From contig CAWAWS010000029.1 of the NCBI GenBank assembly GCA_963785725.1, positions 85,138 through 149,137 on the forward strand: a stretch of DNA of 64,000 bases, written 5' to 3'. This document shows, in pieces, positions 44,947 to 62,642 of this stretch (position 1 is the first letter of the stretch; each line of letters begins with the position of its first letter). Origin of the DNA: an uncultured delta proteobacterium (GTDB taxonomy: Bacteria > Myxococcota_A > Polyangia > Palsa-1104). The notes beneath the pieces are model-generated. The model had not been told where the DNA came from. It made no database searches and worked only from the letters and a program-made list of their open reading frames with translations. Both the position numbers and the translations under genes were made by a program.

Positions 44947-45780
44947 ATGATGGGCGCGTTGCGGACGTTGGGTTATCGCGCTTATCGGCGTGCGCAGCTG
45001 GTGACGTTGTGGAGCATGCGCCGCCGGCGGCTCAGCCTGCGCGCGACCGTCGGCGACTGCCCTATTTGCGAGCACGCGACCGTCTTCATGCCCCTTCACG
45101 ACTATGCGCGCGATGGTTATTTGTGCGCGCGCTGCTTGAGCATTCCGCGCTTTCGCGCGCTCGCCACCGTGCTCGCGCAGGCGCGTCCCGATTGGCGTCG
45201 CTGCGCGATCCTGGAAGCGTCGCCGGCGGGCGCGCTGTCGGAGAAGCTGCAGCGCGAATGCGCCGGCTATGTGGCCGCGAGTTATTATTCGAAGGTCCCG
45301 CGCGGCACGATTCATCGCGGATCGCGCAGTGAAGACTTGGAGGCGCTGACGTTTGCCGATCAGTCGTTCGACCTCGTCATTACGCAGGACGTCTTCGAGC
45401 ACGTCATGAATCCGGCGCGCGCCTTTGCCGAGATCGCGCGCGTGCTGCGTCCCGGCGGCGCACATGTTTTCACGGTGCCTTGGTATCACGAGCAAGTGAC
45501 GCGGCGGCGGGCGCACCGCGTCGGCGCGGGGCCGATCGTCCACGATTTGCCGGCCGAATATCACGCCGATCCGGTGGAGGGCGACGGCAGCCTCGTCGTG
45601 CACGACTGGGGCAGCGACTTTCCCGCGCTCGTCGCGCAATGGTCGGGCTTGCCGACTTCGGTGCATAGCGCGGAGCAGCGGACGCTCGGCATCATCGGTC
45701 AATTCATCGACGTCTTCGTCAGCCGCAAGGCGCCGCTCGCAAACACTGTTAGCGGTCCAACCATCGGTCGAGGAGGAAAC
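44947..45780 (+). CDS. Class I SAM-dependent methyltransferase with N-terminal CxxC pairs; no stop before the next gene
   Basis: CPIC...CARC, EDLEALTFADQSFDLVITQDVFEHV, RVLRPGG. Confidence 0.75.
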
Positions 45781-46773
45781 ATGCAAGCGCGAGTCTGGAG
45801 CGTGGCGACGGCGGGCGGTGCGTTTGGCGCGGAATCGCGGCCGCGACCGACGGTGCGCGAGCATGAAGTCTTGGTGCGGATCGCGGCCAGCGGCGTCAAC
45901 CCGCTCGACGCCAAGATCCGTCAAGGCCAAGCGGCGCACGCGCGACAGCCGCTGCCGGCCGTGCTCGGTCTCGACATGGCCGGCACCGTCGCCGAGGTCG
46001 GCGCGCGCGTCCAAACCTTCGCCGTCGGCGACGAAGTCTACGGCATGGTCGGCGGCGTCGGCGGTCTCCAAGGCACGCTCGCCGAGTGGATCGCCGTCGA
46101 CGCCGAGCTGCTCGCGCACAAGCCGAAGAACCTGTCGATGCGCGAGGCGGCGGCGCTGCCGTTGATCGCCATTACCGCGTGGGAGGGGCTGGTCGATCGC
46201 GCGCAAGCCCGGCCGAATCAGCGGGTGCTCGTGCACGCGGGCGCGGGCGGCGTCGGGCATATCGCCGTGCAGATCGCGCGCGCGTTGGGCGCGCAGGTAT
46301 TCGCCACCGTCTCGCCCGATAAGCGTCATTACGTCGAGCAGCTGGGCGCCACGCCTATCGACTACAAAGCGACGTCGGTCAACGATTATGTCGCGGCGCA
46401 TACGGCCGGCGAAGGCTTCGACGTCGTCTACGACACCGTCGGCGGCGCGACCCTGGACGCGTCATTCAATGCCGTCAAACGCTATACCGGACACGTCGTC
46501 AGCTGCCTCGGTTGGGGCTCGCATTCCTTAGCGCCATTATCGTTTCGCGGCGCCACTTATTCCGGCGTCTTTACATTGATGCCGCTGATCTCGAATCGCG
46601 GGCGCGCGCATCACGGCGAGATCTTGGCCGCGGTCGCGGCGCTCGCCGAGGCGGGCAAGCTGCGTCCGTTCATGCACCAGCGCCGCTTTACGACGGCCGA
46701 CATCGACGCCGCGCACGCGCAGCTGGCGGCCGGCGCAGTCGGCAAGATCGTCGTCGACATCAACGACGCTTGA
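45781..46773 (+). CDS. MDR-family NAD(P)H:quinone oxidoreductase / alcohol-dehydrogenase-like protein
   Basis: Own RBS GAGGAGG plus ATG 45781; VLVRIAASGVNPLD, HAGAGGVG, GKIVV. Confidence 0.88.
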   Translation: MQARVWSVATAGGAFGAESRPRPTVREHEVLVRIAASGVNPLDAKIRQGQAAHARQPLPAVLGLDMAGTVAEVGARVQTFAVGDEVYGMVGGVGGLQGTLAEWIAVDAELLAHKPKNLSMREAAALPLIAITAWEGLVDRAQARPNQRVLVHAGAGGVGHIAVQIARALGAQVFATVSPDKRHYVEQLGATPIDYKATSVNDYVAAHTAGEGFDVVYDTVGGATLDASFNAVKRYTGHVVSCLGWGSHSLAPLSFRGATYSGVFTLMPLISNRGRAHHGEILAAVAALAEAGKLRPFMHQRRFTTADIDAAHAQLAAGAVGKIVVDINDA

Positions 46774-49881: not shown

Positions 49882-51102
49882 TTACATGAAGTTCGGCGTG
49901 TGCAGCATCGAGATGCGCTCGGCCTCGTCGCTGTTGAAGCCGGCGTGCATGAGACGCTTGGCGCGTCCGTCGTGCATCTCGGCCAGCAGCGCTTGGAACG
50001 CCTCGTGACCGCGGGCGAGCGCGCGCGGCTCGTCGCTGCCGGCGGCGAGCACGACGAGCGCGTCCTGAATCGGCGCCGGCACGCCGCCCACGCCATGCAA
50101 CGTCGCGCTGCGCCGGCGCACCGCGTCTTCGAGCCGCCGCGCCAACGTCGCGTCGTGCGCGAGCGCGTGGCGCACGTGCACGACGCCGAAGTGCACATGG
50201 CGCGCCTCGTCGCTGCGCGTGCGCCGCGCCAGCTCGGCCGTGGCTTCGTCGGGCGCAAAGCGCTCGACATAGCGCAACAGATCGAGAAAAGTCCCTTCGC
50301 CCAAGACCGACAAGAGAAAGGCGGCTTCGGTGAAGTCGTCGAGCGCGAGCAGCGACAGGAGCGAGCGCGACGTCGTGACGCTGGAGACGCCGAGCGCGCC
50401 ACCGCCGGCACGCGCCCGTCGCAAGAAGACGTCGATGTGGCGCGCTTCGTCGGTCATTTGCGTCGCCAGGAACTGCGCCACTTCGACGTAGGCTGGATGC
50501 AGCTTGGCCACGAAGCGCGCCGGAACATAGAGCGCCGACAGCTCGTTCTCGGCCAAGAACGTCATGATCTGCCCGACGGCGCGCTCGAGCGGCGGCGGCA
50601 GCGGGCGCACGAGCGACCACGGAATGTCGCGCGTCGCGTCCCACTGCGCGGCCGTCGCTTGCGCGTAGAGCTGGCGCGTCTCGGGCGCGGCCACGCGATC
50701 GCGCTCGATGAGGACGAACGGATAGCGCGGCCCGCCCGGCTCGACGTGAGCGCCGCGCGGCGCGAAGCCCGTGTCCGCGTCGGCGAGCGCCGGCTGCTCG
50801 GCGTCGGTCGGGTGCGGAACGTCGTGCGGACCGCGGCGAATGAGGTGATGATCGCGCGCATCAGTGGTATCGGGCCCGGCGTCGCAGCCGAGATAGTCGT
50901 GCCGCTCGATGCGGCACCAGGCCGGCAAATCCTGACGCAAGCCGCGGTTCGACGACGCCAGCGCGATGACGCCGCCCGGCGCCGCCGCCAGCAGCGCCGG
51001 ACGCAACAGCGCGAGCAGGCCGCCGCCGAGCGGCAGCGCGCCGCCGTCGAGCGCGATTGCGGCGGCGGCCGACTCGCTCACGCCGTCACCAGCCGGCACC
51101 AT
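49882..51102 (-). CDS. TusA-like N-terminal domain fused to a ferritin-like di-iron domain
   Basis: LDGG...PGGVIALAS...DLPAWCR...H; then ENE, DEARH, LGEG, DEARH; alternative GTG start at 51081. Confidence 0.8.
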   Translation of the reverse strand: MVPAGDGVSESAAAAIALDGGALPLGGGLLALLRPALLAAAPGGVIALASSNRGLRQDLPAWCRIERHDYLGCDAGPDTTDARDHHLIRRGPHDVPHPTDAEQPALADADTGFAPRGAHVEPGGPRYPFVLIERDRVAAPETRQLYAQATAAQWDATRDIPWSLVRPLPPPLERAVGQIMTFLAENELSALYVPARFVAKLHPAYVEVAQFLATQMTDEARHIDVFLRRARAGGGALGVSSVTTSRSLLSLLALDDFTEAAFLLSVLGEGTFLDLLRYVERFAPDEATAELARRTRSDEARHVHFGVVHVRHALAHDATLARRLEDAVRRRSATLHGVGGVPAPIQDALVVLAAGSDEPRALARGHEAFQALLAEMHDGRAKRLMHAGFNSDEAERISMLHTPNFM

Positions 51103-51901
51103 TGTTGGGCTCGTCGAGCGCGCGACGCAGGCTTTGATAACCCTCCTCGCGCGGCGGCATCCAGACGCGCAAGCCTTCGAGCTCGAGCAGCCGGCGATGC
51201 GTCGGATTCTCCCAGCTCATCGCGAACAGCGCCGTCTGAAACGCCTTCACTTTGACCTCGGACAGCGTCGGCAGCGCGTCGAACATGCAGTGGTCGAAGC
51301 CCGGCGTCGTCCACAAGACCTCGAGCTGTTGCGCGTCGACACGGCCCGCCGCTTGCTCGTTGATCCACACCAGATCGCCGAGCGCGCCCGCTTGCGCGCG
51401 ACCGTCGGCGAGCGCGCGCAGGACGTCGAGCTCGCTCGTGCCGGTGTCGCCGTGCTTGCCGAGATCGGTGTCGAACGGCAACAGCCGAATGCGCTCGATG
51501 GCCACGCCTTCGGCGCGCAAGAAATGCAGCGGCAGGATGCGCGCCTGCGTCGAGTCGCGGCTGCCGACGGCCAGCGTCTTGCCCGGCAGCTCGCCGATCG
51601 CGCGAATGCCGGCGTCGCGGCGCACGACGATCTTGGCGTGAAAGTCGCGATCGCTGTCGCGCATGCCGAGCGAGCGCGACTTGCCGCCGGTCTGCTTCTG
51701 CACGCGCACGTGGCCGAGCGGCGTATTCCAGGCGATATCGATCTTGCCTTCGAGCAGCATCGCCACTTGCCGCTCGTAATTCGAGAACAGCGCGAAGTCG
51801 AGATCGACGCCGGCGCCGCGGAAATAGTCGCGAATACCCTCCCAGATCGTGACGACTTTCGGATCGTAGGCGACCGCGCCCAATAGAATATTGTCTGACA
51901 T
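51086..51901 (-). CDS. PhnD/SsuA-like substrate-binding-fold protein without signal peptide
   Basis: NYERQV..L..GKIDIAWNTP, LPGKTLAVGSRDSTQA.ILP; TAAGGAG RBS. Confidence 0.82.
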   Translation of the reverse strand: MSDNILLGAVAYDPKVVTIWEGIRDYFRGAGVDLDFALFSNYERQVAMLLEGKIDIAWNTPLGHVRVQKQTGGKSRSLGMRDSDRDFHAKIVVRRDAGIRAIGELPGKTLAVGSRDSTQARILPLHFLRAEGVAIERIRLLPFDTDLGKHGDTGTSELDVLRALADGRAQAGALGDLVWINEQAAGRVDAQQLEVLWTTPGFDHCMFDALPTLSEVKVKAFQTALFAMSWENPTHRRLLELEGLRVWMPPREEGYQSLRRALDEPNNGAGW

Positions 51902-51913
51902 GTTTAGATCTCC

Positions 51914-53092
51914 TTAAAACAGCGGCAGACCGGTGAGCGCCTTGCCGATGAAGTCGTCGAGGTGATCGACCGTCGGCGCCATGACCCAGCCGGCGCGCGC
52001 GTCGCGGAACAGCCGCTCGACGGAAATGCCGCGCGTCTGCCGCGAGAAGGCCGCGCCGCCGCACGCTTTCAAGGCCAAGTCGGTGACGTCGACGGCCGCT
52101 TCCAGCGCCGCCTTGCGCGCCGAGAGCACGAACAGCGGCGCCTCGGCCGACGCCGCTTCGATCTCGCCCAAGGCGCGTTCGAGCAGCGCGCGCGAGGCTT
52201 CGGTGCGCACGCTCATCTGCGCCAGCCGCGCGCGCAAGACCGGTAGATCGCGCAGCGCCGTGCCGGTGTGCTCGAACGTCGTCGACGACAGGTGCGCGGC
52301 GGTCGCGCTCACGGCCGCGCGACACAAGCCGTGCGCCATCGCCGCCGTGCCGATGGCGAACCACGGCAAGATCACCTGCAGCATGGTGTCGGCGCCGGCG
52401 CCGGGCTCGGTCACGAGATCGCGTCGCGTCAGCGCCAAATGCTCGATGGTGACCGGCGCGGAGTCGTTGCCGCGCAGGCCGAGGCCGTCGAAGCCGGGCT
52501 GCGGGCGAATCGCGGCGGCGTCGGTGCGCGCGACATACAACGTCGACTCGAGCGGCGATTGCGCGTTCGGCTTCTGCGCGCTGGCGACATACGAATCGGC
52601 GAAGTTGGCCGACGTGACCCACGATTTCGCGGCGCTGGTGACGAAGCCGTCAGGCGTCGCCGTCAGCTGTGAGACCGGCGCCCAGAATTGCGAGCGCGAG
52701 CCTTTTTCCGACAGCGCCAGCGTCGTCAAGTGCTTGCCGGCGGCGATTTGGCGCAACAGCGGCTCGCGATCGCCGAGGATCTGCGACGCTCCGATCGCCT
52801 GCGCGCCGCTCGTGTGCATGACGAAGATCATCGCCGTCGACGCGCAGCTGCGCGCGAATTCCTCGGCGACGGCACAGAACGCGCGCGGGCCGCCGCCCAA
52901 GCCGCCCAGGTCGCGCCCGATGCACAGGCCGTAAAAGCCGGCGGCGGCGATGGCGCCCAGGTTCTCCTCGGGAAATTTCGCCTGCTGATCGGTGACGGCG
53001 GCGTTGCGCGTGAGCGGGCCGTCGGACAGCGCGATCGCTTGCGCGACGAGATCGGACGACGACGAGTCGAGACCGTAGGGGTGACGCATCAT
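51914..53092 (-). CDS. Acyl-CoA dehydrogenase-fold flavoprotein
   Basis: CASTAMIFVMH, LALSEKGS, KSWVT, GLRGNDS, ERLFRDARAG; GAAGGAG RBS. Confidence 0.88.
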   Translation of the reverse strand: MMRHPYGLDSSSSDLVAQAIALSDGPLTRNAAVTDQQAKFPEENLGAIAAAGFYGLCIGRDLGGLGGGPRAFCAVAEEFARSCASTAMIFVMHTSGAQAIGASQILGDREPLLRQIAAGKHLTTLALSEKGSRSQFWAPVSQLTATPDGFVTSAAKSWVTSANFADSYVASAQKPNAQSPLESTLYVARTDAAAIRPQPGFDGLGLRGNDSAPVTIEHLALTRRDLVTEPGAGADTMLQVILPWFAIGTAAMAHGLCRAAVSATAAHLSSTTFEHTGTALRDLPVLRARLAQMSVRTEASRALLERALGEIEAASAEAPLFVLSARKAALEAAVDVTDLALKACGGAAFSRQTRGISVERLFRDARAGWVMAPTVDHLDDFIGKALTGLPLF

Positions 53093-53404
53093 GACGCTCC
53101 TTCGCCCCGCGGGGCGCGGAGCGTTGTTACGAGGAAATGGGAAGTGGCGAAGAGATCGACACGCGACTCGATGAGCCGCGTCAGGAGAAGCCGGGTCGCT
53201 GGTACAAAGCGAGCACGCGCCGACGACGTTAAACGAGGAAGGCGCGGCTCGCAACGTGCGACCGCCGGGCGCGCGCCGCGACTTGCGCGCGAAAGCCCAG
53301 CTGCGACGAGCGGATGGGCGACGGTCTCGGCCGGTTCAAGGTTCCGCACGATCGACCGATGGACCTCCTACGGTCGGACATCTTCGTCCGCCAAAGGGGG
53401 CCTG

Positions 53405-55319: not shown

Positions 55320-55808
55320 GTGAAAGCCACTCGACTATTGCCTTGCATCGCCCTCGCGATCGTCGCCTGCGGCGGTAGTGACCCGGGCACCGCGACGTTC
55401 GAGGCCGCTGGCAAGGCGGAAACGATCGTCAATCCCAAAGCCAGCAATCAGAAGCAGGGCAGTCAGACCTTGGACATTCAGATCGAGGGCGATCGCGCCA
55501 ACGACGATCCCGAACATACGGTGGTCTTCTTCGTGGACCTGCCGACGACGCCCGGCGCTTTCGACTGCACGGCCGCGATCCCGGCCGTGACGTACTACGA
55601 GCCCTCCGGTAGCACGCCGGGCGCGCCGCCTTTCGTCGCGCCGACCTGGGCCGCGACCAACGTGACGCCGGGCTCGTCCTGCTCGGGTGAGTGGCAGCAG
55701 CAGGGCTCGCGCCTGGTCGGCTCCTTCAGCGCGACGATGACGCAGCTCCTCGTCACCTCCACGCAGACGCTCACCGCCTCCGGCACCTTCGACGTGCCGA
55801 TGCCCTAA
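55320..55808 (+). CDS. Hypothetical lipoprotein
   Basis: GAAGGAG RBS, GTG start, IVAC lipobox, GSFSAT...GTFDV beta-rich C-terminus. Confidence 0.75.
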   Translation: MKATRLLPCIALAIVACGGSDPGTATFEAAGKAETIVNPKASNQKQGSQTLDIQIEGDRANDDPEHTVVFFVDLPTTPGAFDCTAAIPAVTYYEPSGSTPGAPPFVAPTWAATNVTPGSSCSGEWQQQGSRLVGSFSATMTQLLVTSTQTLTASGTFDVPMP

Positions 55809-56641
55809 AGCGGCGTGGCCGAGGTTTGATACCAGTTGGCCTTGCCGTGTTGATGCTTGTGGAATTCGCCGTCGAGCGTCACCGTCGTCTCGGCGCTGCC
55901 GAGAAAGAGACAGCCGAGCGGGCTCATGCGCCGGCGAATGCGCGCCAAGATCTGCTTCTTGCTGTCGGTGTCGAAGTAGATGAGCACGTTGCGCACGAAC
56001 ACCAGGTCGATCGCGGCAAAGGGCGGCCACGCCTCCGACAGATTGAGCTCGCTGAACTCGATCATGTCGCGCAGCTCGTCGACGACTTCGTAGCGGCCTT
56101 GGCTCGCGCGGAAGTATTTGGCGAGCATCGGCGCCGGCATGCCGCGGTTCACTTCCATGGCCGAATAGCGGCCTTCGCGGGCGCGCGTCACCATCTCGCG
56201 CGATAGGTCGGTCGCCAAGAAGCGAATGTCCCAGCGCGGCGCGCACAGGCCGAGCTCGCGCAAGATCATGGCGATGCTGTACGGCTCTTGTCCGCTCGAG
56301 CTGGCCGCGCACCAAATGCTCAGCCGGTGATCATGGCCTTTGTGCGCCATCAAGCGCGGCAAGATGTGTTGGCGCAGCGCTTCGAACGGATGTTGATCGC
56401 GAAAGAAGCTGGTCTCGTTGGTCGTCATCGCTTCGATGACGGTCTGGCTCAGTCGATCGTGCGGGTTGGCGCGCAGCTGCGCGACGAGCGCGGCCAGCGA
56501 CGGAAAACCCTCGCGCTTGGCGACGGCGCCCAGGCGGAACTCGGCCAAGTATTCCTTGCCAGACTCGAGGACGATGGCCGAGCGCCGGCGCAACAGGTCG
56601 CGGATGAAGCCGAAGTCTTGACGAGTCAACGGCGTGCTCAT
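55805..56641 (-). CDS. cheR: Chemotaxis protein-glutamate methyltransferase
   Basis: MTTNETSFFRD, IWCAASSSGQEPYS, RNVLIYFD. Confidence 0.95.
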   Translation of the reverse strand: MSTPLTRQDFGFIRDLLRRRSAIVLESGKEYLAEFRLGAVAKREGFPSLAALVAQLRANPHDRLSQTVIEAMTTNETSFFRDQHPFEALRQHILPRLMAHKGHDHRLSIWCAASSSGQEPYSIAMILRELGLCAPRWDIRFLATDLSREMVTRAREGRYSAMEVNRGMPAPMLAKYFRASQGRYEVVDELRDMIEFSELNLSEAWPPFAAIDLVFVRNVLIYFDTDSKKQILARIRRRMSPLGCLFLGSAETTVTLDGEFHKHQHGKANWYQTSATPL

Positions 56642-57723
56642 CGCGCCGACCCGCGCGTGAACCGCTCGCTGGCGGCGCTCATGCGCACGCGGCGCACGAT
56701 GGCGTCGGCGAGCGCCTCGGGCGGCAGCACCTCCGACGCCAGGCCGCGGCGCACGACGAAGCCGGGCATGCCCCACACGACCGAGGTCGCCTGATCTTGC
56801 GCGAGCACGTCGCCGCCGGCTTCGCGGATGAGCTCGGCGCCGCGCAGGCCGTCTTGCCCCATGCCGGTCAAGATGACGCCGAGGACGCCGTCGCCGTAAG
56901 CGTCGACGACCGACTCGAAGAGCACGTCGACGGCGGGGCGGCACGAGTTGCGCGGCTCGGTCTGATCGAGCGACAGCCGCGGTCGCGGGCCGCGCTGGAC
57001 GCGCATGTGGAAGTCGCCGGGCGCGAGGATCGCCGCGCCGGCCCGCAATTCCATGCCCAGCGTGCCTTCGGCCACGTCGAGGGTGCACAAGGAGTCGAGC
57101 CGCTCGGCCAAGAGGCGCGTGAACAGCTTCGGCATGTGCTGCACGATGACGATCGGCACCGACAGATCCGCCGGCAGCCGCGGCAACAGCGTCGACAGCA
57201 CGTTGGGCCCGCCGGTCGAGCAGCCGATGGCCACGACGCGCACCGGCGGCTGCAGCCGCGGCACCGTCGAGCGCGGCGGCGCCGGCGAGAGGGTGCGCAG
57301 CGTCGCCGTGTCCGGCCGCGCGCACAAGGCCTTGATGCGCGGCACGAGCTCGGCGCGAATATGATCCATCGCCGCCGTGAAGTTGCCGGCGTGATCGGGC
57401 TTGGTGACGTAGTCGTTGGCGCCGAGCGTCAGCGCCTCCACCGTCGCCGCGGCGCCGCGCCGGGTCATCGTCGAGAACATGACGACGGGCAGCTTCGGCT
57501 TGAGCCGTCGCAGGTGCCTGAGCGCCGTCAGCCCGTCCATCTCCGGCATTTCCACGTCGAGCGTCACGATGTCGGGCGACAGCTGCGCGACCTTCGCCAG
57601 CGCCACCATGCCGTTGGCGGCCACGCCGACGACCTCGAGCTCGGGATCGGCGTCGAGCACCTCGCTCACCAGACGGCGCACGACGACGGCATCGTCGACC
57701 ACCAGCACGCGAATCTTGCGCAT
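56638..57723 (-). CDS. cheB: Chemotaxis methylesterase response regulator
   Basis: Receiver domain plus GCSTGGP, VQHMP, RPAVDVLF, LTGMGQDG. Confidence 0.96.
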   Translation of the reverse strand: MRKIRVLVVDDAVVVRRLVSEVLDADPELEVVGVAANGMVALAKVAQLSPDIVTLDVEMPEMDGLTALRHLRRLKPKLPVVMFSTMTRRGAAATVEALTLGANDYVTKPDHAGNFTAAMDHIRAELVPRIKALCARPDTATLRTLSPAPPRSTVPRLQPPVRVVAIGCSTGGPNVLSTLLPRLPADLSVPIVIVQHMPKLFTRLLAERLDSLCTLDVAEGTLGMELRAGAAILAPGDFHMRVQRGPRPRLSLDQTEPRNSCRPAVDVLFESVVDAYGDGVLGVILTGMGQDGLRGAELIREAGGDVLAQDQATSVVWGMPGFVVRRGLASEVLPPEALADAIVRRVRMSAASERFTRGSAR

Positions 57724-57742
57724 GTGTTTGAGCGGCTGCCTT

Positions 57743-58129
57743 TTACGCTTCGAGGTCGGCGAATCCGAGCGCCGCCAGCTTGCCGCGCAAGACTTCGGGG
57801 GTGAACGGCTTCATGACGTACTCGTCGGCGCCGGCCTGCAGCGCGCGGTCGACGTTGGCCGTCTCCGACTCGGTCGTCACCATGACGATGCGCATGCGAT
57901 CGAAGTCGTGCAGCTGGCGAATCGCGGTCACGAAGTCGATGCCCGACATCTCCGGCATGTTCCAGTCGACGAGCGCCAGCGCCGGCGAATCCGACGTCGG
58001 GCCGGTCAGCGTCGCCAGCGCCTCTTTGCCGTTGCCCGCCTGCGCCACGCTGAAGCCGAGCTGCTCCAAGCTGCGCGACAAGATCGAGCGCATGGCCCGC
58101 GAATCATCGATTACGATCGCTCGTTTCAT
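57743..58129 (-). CDS. cheY: Chemotaxis response regulator
   Basis: IDDSRAMR, LVDWNMPEMSG, MVTTE, YVMKPFT; inside the che operon. Confidence 0.92.
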   Translation of the reverse strand: MKRAIVIDDSRAMRSILSRSLEQLGFSVAQAGNGKEALATLTGPTSDSPALALVDWNMPEMSGIDFVTAIRQLHDFDRMRIVMVTTESETANVDRALQAGADEYVMKPFTPEVLRGKLAALGFADLEA

Positions 58130-58140
58130 TTTAGTTTTCC

Positions 58141-59934
58141 TTAAACCGCCGCCAGCTTGGCCCGCTTGACGCGCGCGTTCTCGTTGGCCGCCGCGCCGCC
58201 GGCCGCCAGCGCCGGCGCGTTCATCTTGACGACGCCGAGCGCCTCGAACGTGCTGAACTGCGCCACCAGCGACTGCATCTCCGTCGACATCAGCGCCAGC
58301 TCCGCGGCCGCGCCTTGGCATTGCCCGGCGCCCGACGACGTCGACTGCGCCGCTTCGGCCACGCCGGCGATGTTCTGCGCGATGTCGCTCGACGCCTGCG
58401 CCGCCTCCGAGACGTTGCGGCCGATCTCGTTCGTCGTCGCCGCCTGCTCTTCGACCGCGCCCGCGATCGTGCTCTGAATGTCGTTCACTTGATCGATGGT
58501 CCGGCTGATCTGCGCGATCGCTTCTACGGCCTCTTGCGCGTCGCCTTGAATGGCGGCGATCTTGCGCCCGATGTCTTCGGTCGCTCGCGCCGTCTCTTTA
58601 GCCAGCTCTTTGACCTCGTTGGCGACGACGGCGAAGCCGCGGCCGGCCTCACCGGCGCGCGCCGCTTCGATCGTGGCATTCAGTGCCAATAAGTTGGTCT
58701 GCTCGGCGATGGACGTGATGACCTTGATGACCTTGCCGATCTCGCCCGACGAGTCGCCGAGCTTGGTGACGATGACGTTGGTGCGGCTGGCGACCTTGAC
58801 GGCCGTCGACGCCACGCGCGCCGCTTCGGCGGCGTTCTTCGCCACCTCCTTGATCGACGCGCTCATCTGCTCGGTGCTCGACGCCACCGTCTGCACGTTC
58901 ATCGACACTTGCTCGGCCGCGGCCGCGACGACGCTGGCTTGGCTCGACGTCTCCTCGGCGTTGCCGCCCATCTGACGGCTGACGGCGCCTAGCTCTTCCG
59001 CGGCGCTGGAGAGCGACACGCTCGTCTCGGCCATGCGCAACATCGTTGCCCGCAAAGACTGCACGGCATCCTGGAAGCTCTTCGACAGCTCATCGGCGTC
59101 CGACTTCGGCGCGATCTCGACCATGAGATCGCCGGCTCCGAGCTGCTTACAGCCTTCGGCGACGCCGTGGATGTACCCGAGCGTCTCGCGAAAGGAATCG
59201 GCGAGCACCCCCAACTCGTCTTTGCTGCGGTAGTGAATGGTCTGCTGCAGATCGCCCACCGCCAGCTTCTTGGCCACCGCCGTCAGCTCGCGAACGGGCG
59301 ACGAGATACCGCGCGACATGCTCACCGCCAGCACGAACAGGAGCAGCACCAGCAGCGCCATCACTTCGTAGCTGAAGCCGCTCATGGCCGAGGCCATCGC
59401 GTCCGCTTCCAGCGAGGCCTTTTCGCCGCGCGTCGACTTCTTGGCGATGATGCCGTCGAGGTGGCCGACCGCGCGCGCGAACTTGTCGGCCGCGTCACCG
59501 TCGAAGAGCGCCACCGCTTCGGCGCGCTTGCCCGCGCGCGCCAGCGCCGTCATCGCCTCGTCGGCCGCCAAATAGCCGGCCCACGCGGCCTTGAATTCGC
59601 TGTAGGCGCGGCGCTCGCCTTCGCTCGTCGCCGTCGGTAAGTAGCGCTCGAGCTCGCTGTCGATCTGCACGAGCAGCGCGGCTTTCGCTTTGTCGTCGGC
59701 CGCCGGCGTGGCCAGGCGGCGCAGCTCCTCCAAGCGCAGCTGCGTCATCGCCAGCCGCGCCGCGCCGACGTGCTGCATGCCTGGCAAGTCGTCGAAGCCG
59801 AGCTCGTGCACGGTCGCGTTCATCGCCGACTGTCGATTGACCGCCAGCGCGCCGCCGACCACGAGCACGAGCGCCGTGAAGGCATAGCCGGTGATGATCT
59901 TCGTAAATATGGAGCGGTCAGTGAACCATTTCAT
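58141..59934 (-). CDS. Methyl-accepting chemotaxis protein (four-helix-bundle sensor, HAMP, signalling domain)
   Basis: Two TM helices, [45 protein letters not shown]. Confidence 0.95.
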
Positions 59935-60422
59935 CGGGAGGATCCTTGTGTGGGTCCAAGTGTCAGCGCGGCGGCGCGGGTGGCGTCTTCGGCCCAATCG
60001 CCGACGGTGCGTTCGATATCGAGGATGAGCAGCAGGCGATCGGCGAGCTTGTAGGTGCCGGCGATGAGCTCGCGGCCGACGCCTTGCAGCGTCGCCGGCG
60101 GCAGCTCGAAGAGCGCGTCGTCGACCTCGATGACGTCGCCGATCTCGTCGACGCGCAGGCTGACGACGCCGCCACCGGAGTCGGGCGCGGCGACGATAAC
60201 GTGGATGGGGCTGGCCGCTTCGCCGTCGTGGTCGAGCGCCAAGCGCCGGCGTAGATCGAGCGTCGTGACGATCTGGCCGCGCAAGTTGACGAGGCCGAGC
60301 ACGACCGGCGGCGCCGTCGGCACGCGCGTCAGCGGCAGACAGCGGATGACCTCGCGCACGTGGGCGACGTCGATGCCGAAGTAGAGGCCGCGCAAGAAAA
60401 ACGTGGTGAATTGCCGCGTCAT
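59931..60422 (-). CDS. cheW: Chemotaxis coupling protein
   Basis: [26 protein letters not shown]. Confidence 0.93.
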
Positions 60423-62605
60423 TGGCCGAGCCCGGCGGCGCGCATGATGCCGCGCAGATCGAGCAGCTCGGTGACGCGCTGCTGAATGATGGCCGCACCC
60501 GCGTGGTCGCTCGTCAGCGGCCCCTGCACGATGTCGAGCACGCGATCGACGACGAGCCCGACGCTGCGGCCGCTGTCGTCGGTGTGCACGACCACTTGCA
60601 AGCGCTCGCCTTTGCCGATGACGCCGTCGCCGAGCCGCACCAGCGGCAGAATCCGCCCGCGATATTGCACCGTCTCGCGCGCGCCCGACAGCTCCAGCGT
60701 CGCCGGATCGAGCTCCTCCAAGCGCGCCACTTGATCGAGCGGCATCGCCGCGCGGCGATCGCCGACGCGCAGCACCAGCAGCGTCTGCAGCGCCGCCGTC
60801 TCGGCCGGCGCCGGCGCCGGCTTGGCCGTCTCGACCGCCAGCTGCGACTGGCGCGCGATGGCGCGCACGTCGAGGATGATGACGACGCGCCCGTCTCCGA
60901 GGATGGTGGCGCCGGCGAACGGCCCGACGCTCATCATCTGGCGCTCCAGCGGCTTGACGACGATCTCCTCGGTGTCGACGATGTCATCGACGACGAGCCC
61001 GAAGTTGCGCTGCTCCGTCTGCACCACGACGATGTTCACCGCGTCACCGACGCAGCGCGTGTGCGTCAGCGTCTGATGCAGATAAATGAGCGGCAATAAA
61101 TGTCCGCGCAGCCGATAGACCGGGGCGCCGTGAATGTGCTCGATGCCGCGCGTGCTCGTTTGATCGACGCGCACCAGCTCCTGCACGCACGTCTGTGGAA
61201 TGGCATAGCGGTCGCCGCCCGACTTGATGATGAGCGCGGGGATGATCGCCAGCGTCAGCGGAATCTTCACGCGCAGCGACGTGCCCTGGCCGGTCGTCGA
61301 TTGCACTTCGACGGTGCCGCCGAGCTTTTGCACGTTGGTCTTGACGACGTCCATGCCGACGCCGCGACCGGAGATGCTGCTCAGCTTGGCCGCCGTCGAG
61401 AAGCCGGGCAGGAAGATGAGGTCGACGCGCTCGCGATCGCTCATGCGCTGCGCGTCGGCGAACGTCGTAAGGCCGCGCTCGACCGCTTTTTCGGCGACGC
61501 GCTCGGGATCGATGCCGGCGCCGTCGTCGACGATCTCGATGTTGACCTGTCCGCTCTCGTGAAACGCGCGCACGCGTAAGGTTCCCTGCGCCGCTTTGCC
61601 GGCGGCGACGCGCGTCTCCGGCGTCTCGATGCCGTGATCGACCGCGTTGCGGATGAGGTGCGTCAGCGGATCTTTGATGCCTTCGAGCACGGCGCGATCG
61701 AGGTCGGTGTCCTGCCCTTCGAGCTCGACCTGCACCTGCTTGCCGCAGGCCACCGCCAAGTCGCGCACGACGCGCGGCAGCTTGGCGAACAGATGGCCGA
61801 TCGGCTGCATGCGCGTGCGCATCACGCCTTCGCGCAGCTCCGACGTAATCAGGTTCAGCTGCTGACACGTGCTCGTGAAGGCGGCGTCGTTCAGCCGTCC
61901 CGCCAGCTGCATCATCTGATTGCGCGCCAGCACCAGCTCGCCTGCCAGGTTCATCAGCTTGTCGAGCACCGCGGTGTCGACGCGCACCGAGGCTTCGGCG
62001 TGCGGCAGCGGCTCCGGCGCCGTCGCGGCGACGACGGCGGCGCGCTTTTGCGCGGCCAGCGCCGAGCCGACCGCGGCCGGCGATACGCCCTTGTCCTCGA
62101 CGAGAATTTGCCCCAGCTTGCGCCGATCGCCGTGCTCTTGCGCGTCGAGCGCGGCGGCGACGTCGCTCGGCTGCGCCTCTTCGCGCCCGACCAGCACTTC
62201 GCCGAGCTTGCGCGGCGGCTGCTGTAGGATGAGCTGCGACAAGCGCGCCGTCAGCGCCGAATAATCGCCTTCACCTTCGTCGTGGCTCGACTCGATCGAC
62301 GCCAGCATCTCGCGCACGGCATCGACCAGCTGCAACAGCGCGCTCGCGATCTGATCGTCGATGCGCAGCTCGCCGTCGCGCATCTTCGACAAGAGGCTCT
62401 CGCCCGCGTGCGTCAGCTCGCCCAGCTTCTCGAAGCCGAAGAAGCCGCACGTCCCCTTAATGGTGTGAATGGTGCGAAAGATGCTCGCCAGCGTGTCCTG
62501 TGCGTCGGGATCGCGCTCCAATTCCACGAGCTCCCGATCGAGACGATCGAGGTTCTCGTGGCTCTCCACGAGAAACTCATGGAGCACGTCGTCGCTGGTA
62601 GCCAT
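60419..62605 (-). CDS. cheA: Chemotaxis histidine kinase with MshEN-like insert and two CheW-like domains
   Basis: FRTIHTIKG Hpt, [37 protein letters not shown]. Confidence 0.96.
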
Positions 62606-62615
62606 CCGACTAGGC

Positions 62616-62642
62616 ACATCGGCCCCGCGGCGCAGCACTTGA
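62616..62642 (-). promoter_or_regulatory. Putative sigma28 (FliA-type) promoter of the che operon
   Basis: TCAA-N15-GCCGATGT, 10 nt before the cheA ATG. Confidence 0.65.

Follow-up and report, generated by a model that had tools for sequence, protein, structure and literature searches.

A three-gene operon on the minus strand of a 64,000-nucleotide stretch of DNA from an uncultured delta proteobacterium (contig CAWAWS010000029.1; the whole stretch is called the window) was found to be real, conserved and mis-annotated, with no described function in the literature searched and with selenium as a testable lead. The operon encodes a flavoprotein of the acyl-CoA dehydrogenase (ACAD) fold, a binding protein of the PhnD fold (the carrier) and a fusion of a TusA-like domain to a dimetal-carboxylate domain. 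Judged by sequence, the trio is the di-iron variant of the catalogued, functionally uncharacterised Rv1679-Rv1681 set. As originally predicted, the trio very probably works as a set of enzymes in the cytoplasm and does not serve transport; conserved gene order, lack of an export signal and lack of a permease agree with that prediction, and the cytoplasmic role gains support from proteins in which the carrier and a radical S-adenosylmethionine (SAM) enzyme are fused in frame. Tentatively, the module may break a carbon-selenium bond on a cysteine-capped carrier and feed selenocysteine synthesis, substrate and direction being predicted only. The operon and its parts were placed in the window as follows.

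51914..53092, minus strand: gene 1, ACAD-fold flavoprotein, Rv1679/FadE16-like (392 residues; Pfam ACAD domains, NF049984)
51086..51901, minus strand: gene 2, PhnD-fold carrier, Rv1680-like (271 residues; PF12974, NF049985, structure model)
49882..51102 or 49882..51081, minus strand: gene 3, TusA-like/di-iron fusion (406 or 399 residues, depending on the start)
50830..51081, minus strand: N-terminal domain of gene 3, a TusA fold lacking the CPxP cysteine (3lvj_C match; profile comparison)
49882..50800, minus strand: R2/ADO-like dimetal-carboxylate domain of gene 3 (fold search, ligand conservation)
51902..51916, minus strand: ribosome-binding site of gene 2, over the gene 1 stop codon (sequence)
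53093..53125, minus strand: leader of gene 1, with the ribosome-binding site within a GC-rich hairpin (fold z -2.1)

Relatives were collected by a scan with gene 2, and the best 80 of 299 were kept as named loci. All three genes stood in order at 69 of the 80, in records titled Myxococcota, Acidobacteriota, Planctomycetota and Bdellovibrionota; this is far beyond chance and bears out the synteny across phyla that a neighbourhood check had been proposed to look for. Six of the other 11 loci were at or near a contig end, four were without the flavoprotein gene, and one (L040:7800-9100) was a decayed cassette with an intact carrier, the last flavoprotein codons and both ends of the di-iron gene. 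Genome regions, 60 metagenome loci and three regions from plasmids were added to the named loci, giving a set of 185 from which two duplicates and the decayed locus had been left out. All three genes were present at 132 of these, carrier and di-iron gene at 21, the di-iron gene only at 11, the carrier only at 8, flavoprotein, carrier and radical SAM gene at 7, and flavoprotein and carrier at 6; many of the partial loci were short contigs. The closest named relatives were from Polyangia and Myxococcales assemblies (79-90% identity), and the window's phylum was called Myxococcota on this ground. Of 401 genomes from that phylum 37 carried the carrier family, as did 7 of 251 Acidobacteriota, and distant homologues were assigned by Atlas summaries to Actinomycetota and Campylobacterota. 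One named record (L063) is titled Rickettsiales and is the same contig and place as G127 of the own-phylum sample.

Tight packing in one orientation, noted from the window sequence at the outset, agreed with the coordinates. The spacing between genes 1 and 2 is 12 bp (51902-51913). Read from its ATG, gene 3 shares 17 bp with gene 2; read from the GTG at 51081, the start favoured by the N-termini of close homologues, it begins after a 4-bp gap. An alternative start of gene 1 is its second ATG (53089). The strong ribosome-binding sites claimed for the first two genes were present as AAGGAG upstream of each, and the overlap of the gene 2 site with the gene 1 stop codon suggests translational coupling. 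Across loci, the median stop-to-start gap at this junction was 11 bp, with 45 bp or less in 117 of 133. Each of the three genes was single-copy in its own genome. No match to a sigma-70 promoter or terminator was found. The gene 1 leader hairpin was common to the window and two other loci (L008 and L009) and was ruled out as a family-wide RNA element, with z < -2 in only 29 of 132 leaders; no upstream 8-mer was present in more than 10 of 130 leaders.

Gene 2 matched PF12974 and has the type II binding-protein fold. Its N-terminus is MSDNILLGAVAYDPK, and the open frame of 275 codons leaves room for at most four additional residues. The absence of a signal peptide, part of the original prediction, extended to the family: hydropathy scanning of 158 carrier open reading frames (ORFs) detected no hydrophobic N-terminal stretch in any of them, 100 being without room for more than 20 residues ahead of the first strand and the other 58 without a hydrophobic stretch there. 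Nor did a permease or ATPase family recur among the neighbour clusters of the loci, as had been noted for the window itself; an ATPase-like motif lay within 4 kb of the cassette at 5 of 168 loci (rough gene calls). NF049985 (Rv1680) was the best of 6 families (317.9 bits against a cut-off of 400), which by sequence makes gene 2 a sister group of that family. The structure model (pLDDT 97) was nearest to PhnD1 (7s6g, TM 0.74) and PtxB.

The gene 2 pocket was mapped by profile alignment to 5LQ5 and compared, without docking, with the Prochlorococcus PhnD ligand residues given in the accessible text of PMC5700983 (Y46, S126, T127, S128, H158, D205 and the capping Y206). Two of these seven oxyanion or cap residues were kept throughout, Y46 as Y42 and S126 as S117. 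S128 was replaced by Gln, H158 by E157, D205 by H204 and the cap Y206 by C205, while the T127 position is Thr or Pro in carriers (Thr in 79 of 170, including the window). Cys205 was present in 163 of 171 aligned carriers and, by this alignment, probably sits at the PhnD ligand-capping position, which in PhnD1 faces the hydrogen or methyl on the ligand's central atom. MqnA/MqnD and THI5 had been offered as precedents for binding-protein folds turned into cytoplasmic enzymes; the analogy held in general only, since the nearest structures were PhnD1 and PtxB. PF09084 scored 26.2 bits over residues 24-144 only, and the listed Foldseek rows were led by PhnD/PtxB; none of MqnA, MqnD and THI5 was among the fold matches listed, which does not exclude kinship.

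Carrier homologues also occur alone, without flavoprotein or third gene (L110-L113, L177, L178 and L158); six of these seven form one long-branch clade, next to phosphoesterase and kinase genes. At L033, L036, L065 and L086, small genes of RelE/ParE toxin-antitoxin-like type are inserted between carrier and di-iron gene, the L036 insertion being an antitoxin-like gene only.

Gene 1 scored above the cut-offs of PF02771, PF02770 and PF00441, which together make up the three-domain ACAD fold. Its flavin adenine dinucleotide (FAD)-binding residues S128, E129, K156, T160, R287, G345-G346 and R363 were invariant in 70 rows. NF049984 (Rv1679) was the best of 17 families (375.5 bits against a cut-off of 600; next best 103), placing gene 1, on these scores, as a sister group of that family. 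The position of the catalytic Glu of MCAD is A372 in gene 1 (Ala in 139 of 145 homologues, Glu in none). The position that we take to be that of the IVD catalytic Glu is F245 (Phe in 142 of 142), and the Asp of Ch1DH (D91) corresponds to S95, a variable small residue across homologues. Because no catalytic base was found at any of these three known positions, gene 1 is unlikely to be an acyl-CoA dehydrogenase. His93 was considered as a substitute base and ruled out, since a His is common at the corresponding position of ordinary ACADs too. By family scores the sequence resembles true ACADs more closely than it does DszC or HpaH-type monooxygenases, from which we infer a two-electron redox role.

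Both halves of the gene 3 fusion called from the sequence were matched by fold (model pLDDT 94.8), with two refinements: the CPxP cysteine is absent, and the metals are assigned by fold and ligands. The N-terminal domain matched 3lvj_C, a TusA fold (Z 11.4, root-mean-square deviation 2.5, 74 aligned), and the core matched 6d9f_A, an R2/ADO-like four-helix core (Z 22.3, root-mean-square deviation 3.0, 257 aligned). The complete E/DEARH ligand set that had been read from the window was conserved, each of E187, E219-x-x-H222, E269 and E299-x-x-H302 being kept in 153-159 of 154-160 aligned homologues. At positions 22-25 of the TusA-like domain (88 aligned rows), Cys was not among the commonest residues; a different cysteine, C63, was present in 84 of 100 aligned rows. 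Phe226 lies four residues after the first His, presumably the R2 tyrosyl-radical site; it was Phe in 112 of 119 rows, and Tyr was outside the five commonest residues. Phe at the tyrosyl-radical site is a feature of Mn/Fe R2c and R2lox. "Di-iron" is thus a call from fold and ligands, to which an Mn/Fe site would be the alternative. The C-terminus H-T-x-N-F-M is conserved: 140 of 145 locus ORFs have Met as their last residue, and among distant homologues several terminate in Cys or Met. No Pfam or NCBIfam model scored above its cut-off on gene 3; the AurF/CmlI model PF11583 gave 14 bits (cut-off 29.6).

The third gene is swappable, its place being taken by a di-iron enzyme, a radical SAM enzyme or a zinc methyltransferase-like protein. 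The radical SAM partner (Rv1681 family) was found on plasmids of Mycolicibacterium, Rhodococcus and Miltoncostaea, and a search of 45 carrier genomes showed it in 4. On plasmids, the di-iron gene was not found; di-iron and radical SAM partners occurred together at 0 of 185 loci. Each of the five radical SAM N-termini compared was matched by the profile of the gene 3 N-domain (E 4e-14 to 3e-5). In a quick tree of 88 carriers, which serves description only, the radical SAM types fell at two separate places among di-iron types. Five clean in-frame fusions of carrier and radical SAM enzyme (P0394-P0398) all lack the TusA-like domain, which suggests that in gene 3 this domain docks the partner on the carrier. 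The long ACAD-carrier and carrier-di-iron "fusions" P0399-P0402, P0405 and P0406 looked frameshifted and were not used. The third variant comprises a flavoprotein gene, a cysteine-poor OsmC-like gene, the carrier and a PF01717 cobalamin-independent methionine-synthase-like zinc enzyme (L157:1993-5784; L172:4687-7141, with the flavoprotein gene cut off). A cut locus (L183:32-2463) has the OsmC-like gene, the zinc enzyme not being in view. Neither di-iron nor radical SAM partner was found in the genomes with the zinc-enzyme variant.

Five copies of the radical SAM partner end in F-x-C-A. On the Miltoncostaea oceani plasmid NZ_CP064357.1 (L102:3744-4580, plus strand), the Rv1681-family radical SAM gene ends in F-R-UGA-A; the UGA aligns with the conserved C-terminal Cys of the family, coincides with the annotated gene end and lies ~2 kb from selD and selA, making this enzyme a candidate new selenoprotein. 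The fusions P0394-P0398 end at F-T, one residue short of the conserved Cys, and are possibly cut off at a selenocysteine UGA; they are known from protein sequence alone. The "1 TGA" flags of G192 and G634 proved to be true stops. On a Mycolicibacterium plasmid (L100:3336-14856) the cassette lies among Cys forms of deiodinase-like, AhpD-like and TrsS-like radical SAM families, which elsewhere are known as selenoproteins.

The association with selenium was counted in the sample of 401 own-phylum genomes, 263 of which have selD. The gene was present in 36 of 37 carrier-positive genomes and in 227 of the 364 others (Fisher p 2e-6), and in 29 of 30 (p 4e-5) once the seven stand-alone carriers were removed. 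A control family of similar frequency, TIGR04282, was counted in the first 301 genomes and was not enriched (17 of 30 carrier genomes and 177 of 271 others, p 0.42; selD there in 30 of 30); therefore genome size and completeness alone do not explain the selD link. A second search covered 50 of the 80 named loci and five further genomes. Among these further carrier genomes selD was found in 53 of 55, both misses having selA. In the Acidobacteriota the count was 35 of 35 (34 of 34 without the unpublished genome G859) against a background of 121 of 151 (119 of 149 without G643 and G618, likewise unpublished); the selD backgrounds of this phylum and of the Planctomycetota take in a few carrier-positive genomes. 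Across all carrier genomes selD was present in 89 of 92, and two of the three misses have selA. All ten carrier genomes chosen for an unusual SelD had selA, and selU was found in none of the ten. The window's own genome (88% complete) has selD, selA and selB; selU and senB were not found in it.

Physical linkage was seen as well. Genes of the sel set occurred at 7 of 166 cassette loci, in four lineages by carrier identity; the cassette lies within a sel cluster at L069/L070 and adjoins one at L197/L198/L200 and L205. At L245, additional to the seven, tRNA-Sec lies beside the di-iron gene. A tRNA-like gene at L078 was not confirmed as tRNA-Sec and was left out of the linkage count. Taken together, a real selenium role for the di-iron type is held to be slightly the better bet.

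Under selenium recovery, the trio would release selenium from a small compound of this element, oxidised or methylated, for selenocysteine synthesis. The PhnD-fold protein would bind an oxyanion-like compound, and Cys205, at the site that in PhnD1 faces the ligand's carbon or lone pair, would hold the selenium. The dimetal enzyme, docked via its TusA-like domain, would use O2 to form a one-electron oxidant that breaks the carbon-selenium bond; in other lineages a radical SAM or zinc methyltransferase-like protein would fill the same role. The base-less FAD protein would move two electrons, setting the selenium oxidation state or resetting the cysteine, and selenide would pass to SelD. We infer the substrate, the direction, the protein-protein binding and every chemical step. 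From known chemistry, what may be common to a dimetal oxidase, a radical SAM enzyme and a zinc thiolate alkyltransferase is the making or breaking of a carbon-chalcogen bond. Selenium recovery was favoured over its rivals because of the cysteine-capped oxyanion pocket and the tie to selA and not to orphan selD.

Several observations weigh against selenium recovery. In the Planctomycetota, selD was present in 18 of 20 further carrier genomes (the two misses with selA) against a background of 113 of 151, which is not significant (p 0.17). The background frequency of selD is high (66-80%), and related genomes are not independent; the Acidobacteriota discriminate poorly because the listed selD-negative genomes there are small. 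About 95% of loci have no nearby sel gene, and the crude chance expectation is 0.3-1.8 loci. The third genome without selD, G564, is of the radical SAM type with the cassette on a 9.9-Mb contig and has neither selD nor selA by the searches made; to our knowledge, M. tuberculosis is also without selD. The core pair can therefore work without selenium. G409 has selD, and selA was not found in it. No in-frame UGA was found at a conserved Cys of the three window-type proteins, and folding of the RNA that follows the L102 UGA, compared for a SECIS-like element, did not exceed that of shuffled sequences (z -0.19). Finally, co-occurrence does not separate selenium supply from selenophosphate use.

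In the reverse direction, the module would use selenophosphate, bound by the carrier with selenium toward Cys205, the flavoprotein would oxidise it to a bound selenosulfide, and the third enzyme would join selenium to carbon to give a new organoselenium metabolite, possibly a seleno-sugar. The same selD statistics apply, the shape of selenophosphate would suit a PhnD-type pocket, and radical SAM enzymes, O2-dependent metal enzymes and zinc alkyltransferases are all known to form carbon-chalcogen bonds. G409 fits this direction too. Seven loci in three phyla (L034, L037, L044, L102, L153, L180 and L181) have the cassette flanked by varying subsets of TIGR04282 (DUF2064), GT2, GT87-like, NAD-epimerase, radical SAM/SPASM and DoxX genes; these flanks resemble arsenosugar and methylthioxylose gene sets. 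The proposed link of the cassette to such sugar genes failed at genome level, however, as TIGR04282 was not enriched; most loci have no sugar genes, senB was not found in the window's incomplete genome, and the tested di-iron types accompany selA, not orphan selD. Selenophosphate use was accordingly considered unlikely. A sulfur compound (sulfinate, methylthio or thiol) might instead be handled, with the selenium link reflecting redox lifestyle, ancestry or selenium only in a partner protein. G564 is consistent with this, as are the thiol-redox genes beside the L100 cassette and the MoeB gene after the di-iron gene at L078; the known Glu-less ACAD is a desulfinase (available portions of PMC9293079), and its NCBIfam family ranks third for gene 1 at 95.6 bits. 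Against sulfur stand the enrichment of selD with no enrichment of the control family, the cassettes within or adjoining sel clusters, and the absence of recurring cysteine-synthesis or sulfonate-use genes in the neighbour clusters, so that this explanation was rated as rather unlikely.

Chemistry on phosphorus or arsenic was rated as improbable: here the dimetal or radical SAM partner would generate a thiyl radical on Cys205, and this radical would, in the manner of C-P lyase, attack a methylarsenical, phosphite or phosphonate. Phosphite, methylphosphonate, arsenate or arsenite are the ligands of the structures nearest to the carrier, TIGR04282 takes its name from arsenosugar synthesis, and the Glu first ligand and Phe226 of gene 3 resemble what we take to be features of Mn/Fe R2c radical initiators. 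Yet replacements affect two of the S-T-S oxyanion residues as well as the His, the neighbour clusters show no recurring phn, pho or ars gene, and the zinc-enzyme variant is unsuited to radical chemistry. Still less probable is a secondary-metabolite N-oxygenation pair (a VlmH-like flavoprotein with a di-iron enzyme of VlmB/AurF type), or that gene 2 is the orphaned binding protein of a transporter with unrelated genes next to it. VlmB ranked fourth among the Foldseek matches of gene 3, at odds with an AurF score under the cut-off, a Z of 13.6 against 22.3 for the best match, and replacement of the di-iron enzyme by a radical SAM enzyme. For Rv1680, structure prediction has suggested a part in a phosphonate transporter (PMC8562490, text available in part); transport is already largely refuted. 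No export signal was found, and neither a biosynthetic cluster nor a permease recurs.

Other window genes were viewed from their translations or from neighbour comparison. The downstream PQQ-type propeller protein and the other flanking window genes do not recur at other loci. A single 608-codon frame (44947-46773, plus strand) contains a class I methyltransferase domain together with a zinc-binding dehydrogenase/quinone reductase, as a fusion or as two in-frame genes. Positions 55805-62638 (minus strand) hold, by translations only, an ordinary chemotaxis cluster of CheA, CheW, MCP, CheY, CheB and CheR.

No characterised pathway was matched in the literature, in line with the original statement that no function had been described. 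That prediction had missed the Rv1679-Rv1681 counterpart, which is catalogued only, the association with selenium and the exchange of the third gene between partner types. A functional study of the cassette was not found, most subscription papers and supplements being outside coverage. Literature listings for Rv1681 and fadE16 gave diagnostics and omics papers only, and the Rv1679 protein was reported under hypoxia in one strain in the accessible part of PMC5017210. PMC9312934 and PMC13188914 list other radical SAM selenoproteins, and in their available text neither "ferritin" nor "acyl-CoA dehydrogenase" occurs.

This small and self-contained cassette has a wide distribution among soil phyla, and its database labels (fatty-acid enzyme, phosphonate transporter part, sulfurtransferase/ferritin) each fail their defining test. 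The same core pair occurs in Mycobacteriales, with no function found for it in the literature searched. How selenium passes from oxidised or methylated compounds into SelD is poorly understood in bacteria, and new selD-linked clusters have each given new chemistry, selenoneine being an example. A bolder and more doubtful proposal is that the trio represents an undescribed selenium pathway with a new enzyme architecture, in which a transporter-type binding fold would act as a cysteine-capped selenium carrier with any of three unrelated catalytic partners (an O2-dependent dimetal enzyme, a radical SAM enzyme ending in Cys or selenocysteine, or a zinc alkyltransferase) and a cysteine-less TusA docking domain. 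If true, it would assign a function to Rv1679-Rv1681 and add a selenoprotein family. The choice of partner would then be likened to that of ribonucleotide reductases, which have oxygen-dependent and oxygen-independent radical sources.

Known systems resemble the trio in part. YedE, YedF, DUF3343 and LysR_Se, the four other selenium candidates named in the available part of PMC5322559, were, like the trio, picked out because they lie near sel genes and co-occur with selD; they are other proteins, and the trio is not among the four. YedF has a TusA/SirA-like domain as in gene 3 but keeps CPxP. PhnD1 and PtxB (7S6G, 5LQ5) share the fold of gene 2, with the kept residues Y42 and S117, whereas gene 2 has no signal peptide or permease, changes the cap from Tyr to Cys, Asp to His and His to Glu, and carries an additional inserted G-K-H-G-D loop. 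TIGR04553, a putative selenate-binding protein family, gave 94 of 250 bits on gene 2. The 3-sulfinopropionyl-CoA desulfinase has, like gene 1, an ACAD fold without the catalytic glutamate (PMC9293079, as far as available), but gene 1 reaches just 95.6 of the 600 bits of its family; CoA-using ACADs have an L-D-x-x-R segment, which in gene 1 reads L-P-W-F-A. R2lox, class Ic R2c and the aldehyde-deformylating oxygenase-like 6D9F have in common with gene 3 the four-helix core, the six ligands (Z 19-22) and Phe at the radical site; identity is 24% or less, and gene 3 adds the TusA-like N-domain and the conserved C-terminal Met. Closest is the Rv1678-Rv1681 set of Mycobacteriales (NF049986, NF049984, NF049985, NF049973). 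Its third gene is a radical SAM enzyme where the window has a dimetal enzyme, the window lacks an Rv1678-like membrane gene, and window genes 1 and 2 fall below the cut-offs of the Rv1679 and Rv1680 families; the gene order is the same, the TusA-like N-domain is homologous, and the Rv1679-Rv1681-type copies on Mycolicibacterium vanbaalenii plasmids are 42-45% identical to the window proteins.

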